From: a virus
Lineage: Duplodnaviria; Heunggongvirae; Uroviricota; Caudoviricetes
Length of the DNA stretch: 64,000 nt
Virus record (IMG/VR): IMGVR_UViG_3300023371_000071
Direction: 5' to 3' (one strand)
Part shown: piece by piece, positions 19,471 to 19,561 of the stretch
How the letters are laid out: each line of letters starts with the position of its first letter
Position numbering within the stretch: position 1 is the first letter of the stretch
Program-made: the position numbers and the translations under genes
Notes under the pieces: model-generated
What the model was told of the DNA's origin: nothing
The model's database searches: none
What the model saw: only the letters and a program-made list of their open reading frames with translations

Positions 19471-19561
19471 AGGGGAGTGGTGTAACGGCAGCACGGCAGA
19501 CTCTAAATCTGTTAGCCCTCTGAAGGCGTAAGTCAGGGTTCGAATCCCTGCTCCCCCGCCA
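19471..19561 (+). tRNA. amber-suppressor tRNA, anticodon CUA, class II (Ser-type features)
   Basis: acceptor aggggag/ctccccc, 3-bp D stem, anticodon arm gcaga-ctCTAaa-tctgt, 21-nt variable arm, T arm caggg-ttcgaat-ccctg, G73, CCA; own promoter cassette immediately upstream. Confidence 0.75.

Follow-up and report, generated by a model that had tools for sequence, protein, structure and literature searches.

We analysed a stretch of 64,000 nucleotides (nt) from the IMG/VR virus record IMGVR_UViG_3300023371_000071 (Caudoviricetes), hereafter the window, with a focus on a transfer RNA (tRNA) with the anticodon CUA that is encoded at 19471-19561 on the + strand. This tRNA is very likely a glutamine-inserting amber suppressor used for TAG recoding, and the phage is predicted to use genetic code 15, in which TAG encodes glutamine. 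The variable region of the tRNA forms a small hairpin, the loop of which is identical to the anticodon loop of tRNA-Gln(CUG). We consider it probable, as an overall explanation, that this is a code-15 Gln amber suppressor equipped with an identity arm that mimics an anticodon. For the arm taken by itself, a role as an identity element is an evenly balanced question.

The tRNA with anticodon CUA

In the ARAGORN output, a 91-nt tRNA with the anticodon CUA occupies exactly 19471-19561 of the + strand. It is one of 33 tRNA genes that the program called on this strand between 9.6 and 26.5 kb of the window. The Rfam model RF00005 scored it at 53.3 bits, compared to a gathering score of 29. A class-II-shaped tRNA of 91 nt with this anticodon had been proposed in an earlier reading made from the sequence only (the sequence-only reading), and both programs agree with it. 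The tRNA can be parsed as AGGGGAG UG GUG-UAACGGCAG-CAC G GCAGA-CUCUAAA-UCUGU [UAGCCCUCUGAAGGCGUAAGU] CAGGG-UUCGAAU-CCCUG CUCCCCC G CCA, with the variable region in brackets. The anticodon loop is CU-CUA-AA (CUA at 19503-19505), the D stem has 3 base pairs (bp) plus a possible U13-G22 wobble, the D loop has 9 nt and contains GG, and the acceptor/T geometry is 7/5. The body further shows G2-C71, G3-C70, G10, G73 and an encoded CCA. The anticodon loop, the 21-nt variable region, the 3-bp D stem and G73 had all been read in the same way from the letters. The fold had also been called clean; this holds for the cloverleaf but not for position 1:72, where ARAGORN and Infernal alike mark an A1xC72 mismatch. 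The z-score of the folding energy was -0.47, which is not significant and is usual for tRNAs.

The variable region (19513-19533, + strand) comprises 21 nt. Its minimum free energy fold is a 3-bp hairpin made of GCC (19515-19517) and GGC (19525-19527), with the 7-nt loop CUCUGAA at 19518-19524 and the triplet CUG at 19520-19522. The stem is followed by a 6-nt linker on the 3' side.

ARAGORN tags this tRNA as 'Pyl', a label that reflects the anticodon alone. In the pyrrolysine tRNA (tRNA-Pyl), the variable loop is very short and the D loop is small, and the selenocysteine tRNA (tRNA-Sec) has an 8/5 or 9/4 acceptor/T helix and the anticodon UCA. Both identities were rejected, since the variable region has 21 nt, the D loop has 9 nt and contains GG, the anticodon is CUA and the 7/5 geometry is unlike that of tRNA-Sec or allo-tRNA.

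TAG as a sense codon

Among the 66 open reading frames (ORFs) of at least 100 amino acids (aa) on the + strand of the window, 36 end with TAA, 29 with TGA and one with TAG. The single TAG-ended ORF is a fragment of a recoded GIY-YIG gene, leaving no true TAG stop among the 66. This gene (55439-56398, + strand) encodes a protein of 319 aa in which a transmembrane helix and a coiled coil are combined with a GIY-YIG domain. The gene contains five in-frame TAGs (55601, 55634, 55679, 56177 and 56246) and no other stop, and it is the only gene of the window that needs a suppressor. The PF01541 match (E = 3.9e-10) covers residues 230-311, and the domain crosses two of the TAGs. Syntenic orthologues (49-56% identity) have 6 and 4 TAGs, mostly at different positions. 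The contigs L002 and L004 begin inside the GIY-YIG gene, and gene calls made with code 11 break the gene up. The protein, a membrane-anchored coiled-coil nuclease, is kept in synteny in L006 and L010. As a speculation, its TAGs could hold back a potentially toxic nuclease until the suppressor accumulates.

In the sister strain L257, which shares 94.7% nucleotide identity with L001 over 4 kb, 23 TAGs lie in frame within 8 late-region genes, among them a SpoIID/peptidoglycan-binding gene of the lysis type and RuvC. No in-frame TAG was found in the replication genes of L257. Most of the recoding is in late and lysis genes, with a single nuclease gene of the replication region in addition. This distribution in L257 and the window corresponds to the published pattern of recoded phages, in which the early region is compatible with the standard code and late or lysis genes are recoded (bioRxiv 10.1101/2021.08.26.457843).

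Between the window and L012, the tRNA shows 100% identity and the adjoining GT8 protein only 72%, indicating that the tRNA is under strong constraint. It is also 100% identical in L013. That the phage has the means to read UAG as sense, as had been proposed, is borne out by the lack of true TAG stops, the TAGs of the GIY-YIG gene and the 23 TAGs of L257. A conserved amber suppressor in a phage that reads TAG as a sense codon is strongly supported by these genomic data.

Glutamine as the probable residue at UAG

Database proteins show TAG as Q by construction, so DNA was used instead for the comparison of TAG sites. We compared 28 sites, taken from the GIY-YIG family, a 241-aa gene of L012 with 7 TAGs, an alignment of L257 with an IMG/VR relative, and a solved SpoIID. 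These sites belong to lineages with a long-arm tRNA or, for the 16 L257 sites, to a strain in which the tRNA is presumed. Gln was the commonest residue of the orthologues. The summed BLOSUM62 scores over the 28 sites, in half-bits, were 38.3 for Q, 21.7 for E, 20.0 for K, -4.2 for S and, as the worst value, -71.8 for W; Ser held 0.3 of the 28 site-weights.

Exchanges between TAG and CAA or CAG occur within the conserved motifs YVG-Q-A, YW-Q-EF and REDE-Q. Within the GIY-YIG family, CAA or CAG occurs at the TAG columns YVG-Q-A and YW-Q-EF and at one coiled-coil site, and no Ser codon was found at those conserved GIY-YIG columns. D-TAG-A-F aligns with the D-Q-V-Y motif of the solved SpoIID 4rwr. 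RuvC matched solved structures with 18-22 bits, and these homologues are too distant for a comparison of TAG columns.

The residue inserted at UAG is most likely Gln, as judged from these codon exchanges. Serine, which the sequence-only reading had regarded as most plausible, finds no support in view of the scores of S (-4.2) and Q (38.3) at the 28 sites, the class-I homologues and the Gln-type arm loop, both of which are described below. In crAss-like phages, TAG = Q was proven by proteomics (PMC9523058), and the predicted isotypes of suppressor tRNAs (tRNA-Sup) are Gln (69%), Trp (19%) and Ile (10%) (PMC10879173).

The variable arm as an apparent copy of an anticodon loop

The arm loop of the window's tRNA, CUCUGAA, matches an anticodon loop of tRNA-Gln(CUG) at every position; in true tRNA-Gln(CUG) genes of the same loci, the anticodon loop reads CUCUGAA or CUCUGAC. 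A first scan of IMG/VR with the D-arm and anticodon-loop type of the CUA tRNA returned 56 CUA tRNAs. Fourteen of them were 88-94 nt long, and 13 of these 14 had the variable-arm loop YUCUGAR. With a scan that left the arm open (CTCTAAA-N22-34-GGTTCGAATCC), the number of unique long-arm CUA tRNAs rose to at least 58 in all, or 59 with that of the window. Since fixed strings for the anticodon loop and the T loop defined these sets, all proportions given here are those of that sample, among the matches listed.

The arm contained CUG-A or UUG-A in 48 of the 59 long-arm CUA tRNAs and UCCA in one; CUG and UUG are glutamine anticodons. The opposite was found for unique long-arm tRNAs with the anticodon UCA (0/22 with CUG-A or UUG-A, 21/22 with UCCA). 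Both motifs were rare in the arms of unique Ser tRNAs (4/55 and 2/55, respectively) and unique Leu tRNAs (2/51 and 0/51). The loop profile in the long-arm CUA tRNAs is Y32-U33-[C/U]-U-G-A37-R38 on a 3-bp stem, and the closing pair of the stem shows compensatory changes (CG 34, GC 7, UA 3, AU 1). Among the motif-bearing CUA tRNAs, the 1:72 position is weak or mismatched in 45 of 48 (U-A 20, A-C 13, U-U 6), and G73 is present in 34 of 48.

The UCA tRNAs came from an opal control scan (CTTCAAA...), which returned 26 tRNAs, 22 of them unique, all 93-97 nt long and labelled 'SeC' by ARAGORN. In the 21 with UCCA, the arm has 4-5 bp and typically the loop CUCCAAA, which is the anticodon loop of tRNA-Trp. 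Their acceptor ends carry A1-U72 in 16/21 and G73 in 18/21. Long-arm UCA tRNAs are probably widely mis-annotated as selenocysteine tRNAs. In IMG/VR loci L260-L352 (e.g., L285, L289, L293 and L352), the variable arm of the UCA tRNA is a copy of the full tRNA-Trp anticodon stem-loop (5 bp, 7 nt). As read from these sequences, the arm anticodon matches the amino acid assigned to each stop codon in phages, namely Q for TAG and W for TGA. GlnRS and TrpRS, the synthetases for glutamine and tryptophan, are anticodon-dependent enzymes.

Two further observations concern long-arm tRNAs in general. Long-arm tRNA-Ile(UAU) genes of 91-96 nt (L015 1394-1489 and other IMG/VR loci) have arm loops such as CAGAUAA and CAGAUUA, and the GAU within them is the major Ile anticodon. 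This hints that a design with two loops may also be used for AUA decoding. Moreover, a long-arm and a class-I CUA tRNA occur together in L102, L118, L123, L132, L139, L140, L145, L108, L126 and L150. The two genes are 3-5 nt apart in 8 of these 10 contigs and about 425 nt apart in L145; in L126 the class-I gene comes first.

Identity elements and ancestry of the tRNA

The bacterial Gln identity set comprises G73, U1-A72, G2-C71, G3-C70, G10, U35, G36 and A37, and U38 is also counted with G36 among the anticodon-loop elements (PMC9976931). The CUA tRNA has G73, G2-C71, G3-C70, G10, U35 and A37. Its first pair is the unpaired A1xC72 as opposed to U1-A72, and A36 and A38 stand in the place of G36 and U38; CUG-A is found instead at 19520-19523, in the loop of the variable arm. 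An amber tRNA-Ser switches to Gln when pairs 1-72 and 3-70 are changed, and a tRNA-Trp amber suppressor of E. coli receives Gln (PMC9976931). Identity of the body to other tRNAs of the window does not discriminate (73.5% to Leu(UAG), 72.1% to Gln(CUG), 71% to Pro, 62-67% to Ser), and a 10-mer shared with tRNA-Leu(UAG), AAGGCGTAAG, was taken as probable chance. Identity rules by themselves leave the amino acid undecided; it is the codon evidence that decides.

The more distant relatives L015 and L017 have class-I CUA tRNAs of 75-76 nt. Their GT8 proteins are 38-49% identical, and the GT8 genes of these relatives carry in-frame TAGs themselves. These tRNAs share with the window's tRNA an xGGGG acceptor, a weak or mismatched 1:72 position, G73, the D loop UAACGG and the anticodon loop CUCUAAA. 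Because these relatives have homologous class-I suppressors, the long arm seems to have been added to a class-I suppressor body and not to be a legacy of tRNA-Ser.

Proposed mechanism

Transcription of the tRNA starts at one of the many sigma-70-like promoters of the phage and probably takes in three further tRNAs. It is strongly supported that the canonical anticodon arm pairs through CUA with UAG on the ribosome. Charging would be carried out by a host enzyme, either by GlnRS or, where the host lacks GlnRS, by a non-discriminating GluRS followed by GatCAB. The charging enzyme would use the Gln-type acceptor end, that is, the unpaired 1:72 position, G2-C71, G3-C70, G10 and G73. With the anticodon CUA, G36, a major Gln identity element, is lost. 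The hairpin of the variable arm may then act as another anticodon loop, one that does not decode but marks identity, and so restore or improve recognition by the Gln machinery. The arm probably originated by tandem duplication of the anticodon stem-loop, and the linkers fit this, with one nt before the first arm and a class-I-like stretch of 4-6 nt after the second.

This idea can be extended to a general 'two-anticodon-loop' design of phage stop-suppressor tRNAs, in which a second hairpin would show the native anticodon of the inserted amino acid; we would give it slightly less than an even chance. UAG suppressors would thereby be matched with CUG or UUG (Gln), UGA suppressors with CCA (Trp) and, possibly, long-arm tRNA-Ile(UAU) with GAU (Ile). 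Anticodon-dependent host GlnRS, TrpRS and IleRS would then still recognise the tRNA.

Several points weigh against this explanation. To our knowledge, the variable region points away from the enzyme in the known complexes of class-I synthetases. A monomeric GlnRS that holds the acceptor end would also have to reach the arm loop, which poses a problem of geometry. The stem of the arm has 3 bp only, and long-arm and class-I CUA tRNAs lie side by side in some phages. The proportions in the IMG/VR survey apply to a sample selected by fixed loop strings. That the host belongs to Bacillota is suggested only by binning in metagenome-assembled genomes (MAGs) and by promoter type. The TAG-column statistic comprises 28 sites, 16 of them from L257 with its presumed tRNA, and some conserved TAG columns align with P, I/L or W in other lineages. 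In addition, a single mutation separates TAG from CAG, GAG and AAG, and this alone favours Q, E and K where sites vary; it is the conserved-motif sites that weigh most in this evidence. Finally, the tRNA also carries determinants of Ser identity (G73, C72, G2-C71, R4-Y69, with R a purine and Y a pyrimidine, G30-C40 and the long variable region), and some charging by the serine enzyme, SerRS, is possible. G1-C72 and C11-G24 are absent from it, with U11-A24 present instead of the latter.

Alternative explanations

The arm could be a mere relic of a duplicated anticodon stem-loop, without a role in charging, on a tRNA that inserts Gln all the same. The linker geometry, with one nt (G26) before the first arm and 4-6 nt as in class I after the second, would suit such a relic, as would the second arm of the UCA set, which is a full 5-bp/7-nt stem-loop. 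Furthermore, armless class-I CUA suppressors exist in relatives and evidently work. However, a neutral relic would be expected to decay, whereas the core [C/U]UG-A is found in 48 of the 59 listed tRNAs on many acceptor stems. The compensatory changes in the arm stem, the loop that is Gln-specific on UAG and Trp-specific on UGA suppressors, and the complete conservation of the whole tRNA between the window and L012 also argue against it. We therefore regard a relic as unlikely, although it is the strongest of the alternatives.

Somewhat less likely still is a functional arm with another role. Such an arm might be recognised by a modification enzyme, divert an anticodon nuclease as a decoy, keep SerRS, LeuRS or TyrRS away as an anti-determinant, or allow a conformer whose second loop decodes CAG. 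Conservation of the arm speaks for selection without naming the partner, and the geometry problem of GlnRS counts in favour of this view. The long-arm and class-I CUA tRNAs side by side in L102, L108 and L145 also hint at different roles. On the other hand, the strict match between loop triplet and amino acid (CUG/UUG with UAG, CCA with UGA) is what an identity role predicts, the identity features of the acceptor end match as well, and a 3-bp stem is unlikely to be a decoding arm.

A serine-type suppressor resembling supD, which SerRS would charge through the long arm and G73 so that UAG means Ser, is improbable. The Ser determinants listed above, with G4-C69 as the 4-69 pair, belong to the bacterial Ser set (PMC9976931), and SerRS is indifferent to the anticodon. 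The sequence-only reading had based its choice on a likeness to the three Ser tRNAs of the window and a contrast to four Leu tRNAs, of which ARAGORN finds three. G73 and the long variable region are indeed shared with the Ser tRNAs, but the variable stem has 3 bp here and 5-6 bp there. All three window Ser tRNAs have G1-C72 where the CUA tRNA has the A1xC72 mismatch, their acceptor begins with GGAG (3/3) and not with AGGGG, and the 11-24 pair is U-A rather than C-G. Body identity to the Ser tRNAs (62-67%) is no higher than to many other tRNAs, and the relatives have class-I homologues. The arm loop looks like that of Gln, a motif seen in only 4 of 55 ordinary Ser tRNAs, and the score of S at the TAG sites, with 0.3 of 28 site-weights, stands against the 38.3 of Q.

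Insertion of tryptophan or another residue, or a pseudogene among decaying TAG genes, can be practically dismissed: the acceptor AGGGG...CCCC-G73 (A1, G2-G5, G73) does also fit the bacterial Trp set (PMC9976931), but W scores lowest at the TAG columns (-71.8), position 35 is U and not C, the E. coli tRNA-Trp amber suppressor itself receives Gln (PMC9976931), and the perfectly conserved tRNA as well as TAG-bearing ORFs that lack other stops or frameshifts and are kept across about 50% aa divergence do not resemble decay.

Promoter, leader and neighbouring sequences

A promoter cassette lies upstream of the tRNA at 19403-19436 on the + strand (TTGATT-N17-TATAATATATA), with TTGATT as the -35 element (19403-19408) and TATAAT as an extended (TG) -10 element (19426-19431). 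The pattern TTGAYT-N17-TATAATATATA has 29 copies on the + strand of the window compared to 0.05 expected by chance, and it is the general sigma-70-like promoter of the phage. The same cassette is kept upstream of the identical tRNA in L012. Downstream of the suppressor, ARAGORN finds tRNA-Gly(UCC), tRNA-Gly(GCC) and tRNA-Phe(GAA) at 19671-19990 on the + strand. In a scan of 19200-19800, no + strand terminator was called before the tRNA-Gly at 19671, and the next cassette follows at position 20004. For these reasons, the cassette at 19403-19436 probably also drives the three downstream tRNAs, and we infer that they are co-transcribed with the suppressor. A promoter of the tRNA's own, about 20 nt upstream, had been described previously. 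The cassette is indeed present, but it ends 35-40 nt upstream (at 19436), and for one of 29 copies, probably shared with other tRNAs, the terms private and dedicated say too much.

The 5' leader of the tRNA can form a hairpin at 19460-19475 (+ strand), in which the leader sequence CCCCUA would pair with the tRNA start UAGGGG across the RNase P site. This inverted repeat was also caught by a scan for terminator-like structures on the minus strand, and the pairing is kept in L012 despite a different loop. A scan with Rfam found no theta ribozyme, ribozyme resembling that of hepatitis delta virus (HDV), or other Rfam family around the tRNA.

A micro-ORF (MGMNDK..KVTYSNFQ..) at 19571-19627 starts 10 nt past the suppressor tRNA and is kept in L012 (10919-10996). 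It reads into a TAG, which is followed immediately by TAA in the window and by six further codons and then TGA in L012. The micro-ORF sits within a long hairpin (GUCACAU...AUGUGAC). Another tandem, TAG-TGA, closes a 61-aa ORF at L005 8403-8588.

The phage and its relatives

The window covers the replication and auxiliary-metabolism region of a large phage. Pfam identified gyrase A and B, DNA ligase, DnaB, AAA_24, formate-tetrahydrofolate ligase, S-adenosylmethionine (SAM) synthetase, RNA ligase, a vault-protein-like protein and a TROVE-like protein. Exact-protein matches led to two ENA contigs (168,765 and 167,964 bp) with a common break point, and the contigs of many relatives span 167-177 kb. 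The genome size is therefore estimated at about 170 kb, and a genome above 300 kb was rejected on the same grounds. The phage is a gut or rumen phage of this size. Sigma-70-type promoters, SPbeta-like YorF and YorH, a SpoIID-type lysin and similar tRNAs binned in Bacillota MAGs weakly suggest a Bacillota host.

A megablast search of 19000-23000 against GenBank phages gave short matches to unrelated tRNAs and no close relative, and the 20-mer of the anticodon arm had no exact match in IMG/VR. When SAM synthetase (MetK) was used as a query for the tRNA arrays of relatives, 80 unrelated loci with about 55% identity were among the matches listed.

Every credible gene of the window is on the + strand. 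Long antisense ORFs face real + strand genes; an example is 991-2790(-), with 599 aa, opposite 1138-2817(+). The cargo of the phage includes a protein like the major vault protein (MVP) with MVP shoulder and Vault_3 domains, a TROVE-like protein with DUF2828/DUF7788, a flotillin/SPFH protein and a full formate-tetrahydrofolate ligase. The genes of these four proteins are located, taken together, at 30779-33250, 28687-30201, 42968-44425 and 45794-47434. Three tRNA-like genes at 7745-7870, 7877-7994 and 8289-8403 (+ strand) were missed by ARAGORN and scored 41-47 bits with Rfam. Each has an insert of 48-60 nt in the anticodon arm or loop, and the first one becomes tRNA-Tyr(GUA) when the insert is removed. 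Introns in tRNAs were reported for jumbo phages with alternative codes (PMC13037316). As an alternative, these genes could be tRNA mimics of the Y-RNA type, given the TROVE/Ro60-like gene at 28687-30201.

Comparison with known systems

A CUA tRNA within the tRNA array of a large gut phage is known from the tRNA-Sup(CUA) of code-15 phages (crAss-like, Lak and other gut phages), for which we used the work of Borges et al. (bioRxiv 10.1101/2021.08.26.457843), Peters et al. (PMC9523058) and Kienbeck et al. (PMC10879173) for comparison. As in these phages, TAG is not a stop, occurs in frame mostly in late and lysis genes and aligns best with Gln, and a host synthetase is presumed to charge the tRNA. 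Unlike their tRNA-Sup(CUA), the tRNA described here has a class-II shape, 91 nt and an arm hairpin that copies the Gln anticodon loop; moreover, no theta ribozyme adjoins it according to Rfam, and its CCA is encoded.

With the Gln amber suppressors of E. coli, supE (tRNA-Gln with CUA) and su+7 (tRNA-Trp with CUA), it shares G73, a weak first pair, G2-C71, G3-C70, G10 and U35. Those tRNAs, however, are class I with short variable loops and U1-A72 or A1-U72, in contrast to the A-C mismatch and the extra arm found here. The long variable region, G73 and a conceivable anticodon-independent charging are reminiscent of supD of E. coli and of class-II tRNAs (Ser, Leu, Tyr, Sec). The differences are the lack of G1-C72 and C11-G24, the 3-bp arm, the 7-nt anticodon-like loop, the long 3' linker and, as regards supD, TAG columns that do not fit Ser.

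The operator of the thrS mRNA contains a mimic of an anticodon loop that is bound by ThrRS (PMC9976931). The hairpin proposed here would likewise present a cognate anticodon sequence to the anticodon-binding domain of a synthetase. In thrS, the mimic is part of an mRNA and regulates translation, whereas here it would lie within a tRNA and act in the tRNA's own charging.

Code-15 phages and their suppressor tRNAs are already established, and the tRNA itself is an expected part of such a phage. An anticodon-mimic variable arm appears, as far as can be told, to be new. No description of anticodon-like or long variable arms in suppressor tRNAs was found in the literature searched, which mostly did not include subscription journals, so that a prior account is possible.

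The long arm with G73 is a trap for annotation, as it invites a serine assignment, and ARAGORN labels such tRNAs 'Pyl' for CUA and 'SeC' for the UGA counterparts. The data point to glutamine for the UAG suppressors, and for the UGA counterparts the Trp anticodon loop and the Trp-type acceptor ends point to tryptophan. A wrong amino acid assigned to the suppressor would mean that every recoded gene is mistranslated. The arm appears to be a conserved copy of the cognate anticodon loop that occurs on many unrelated suppressor bodies and switches with the stop codon that is suppressed. If synthetases read this arm, it would be a natural solution to the charging of an anticodon-changed tRNA by an anticodon-dependent synthetase, a long-standing problem of suppressor design and code expansion. 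The two-loop design, if true, would be a natural uncoupling of tRNA identity from decoding.

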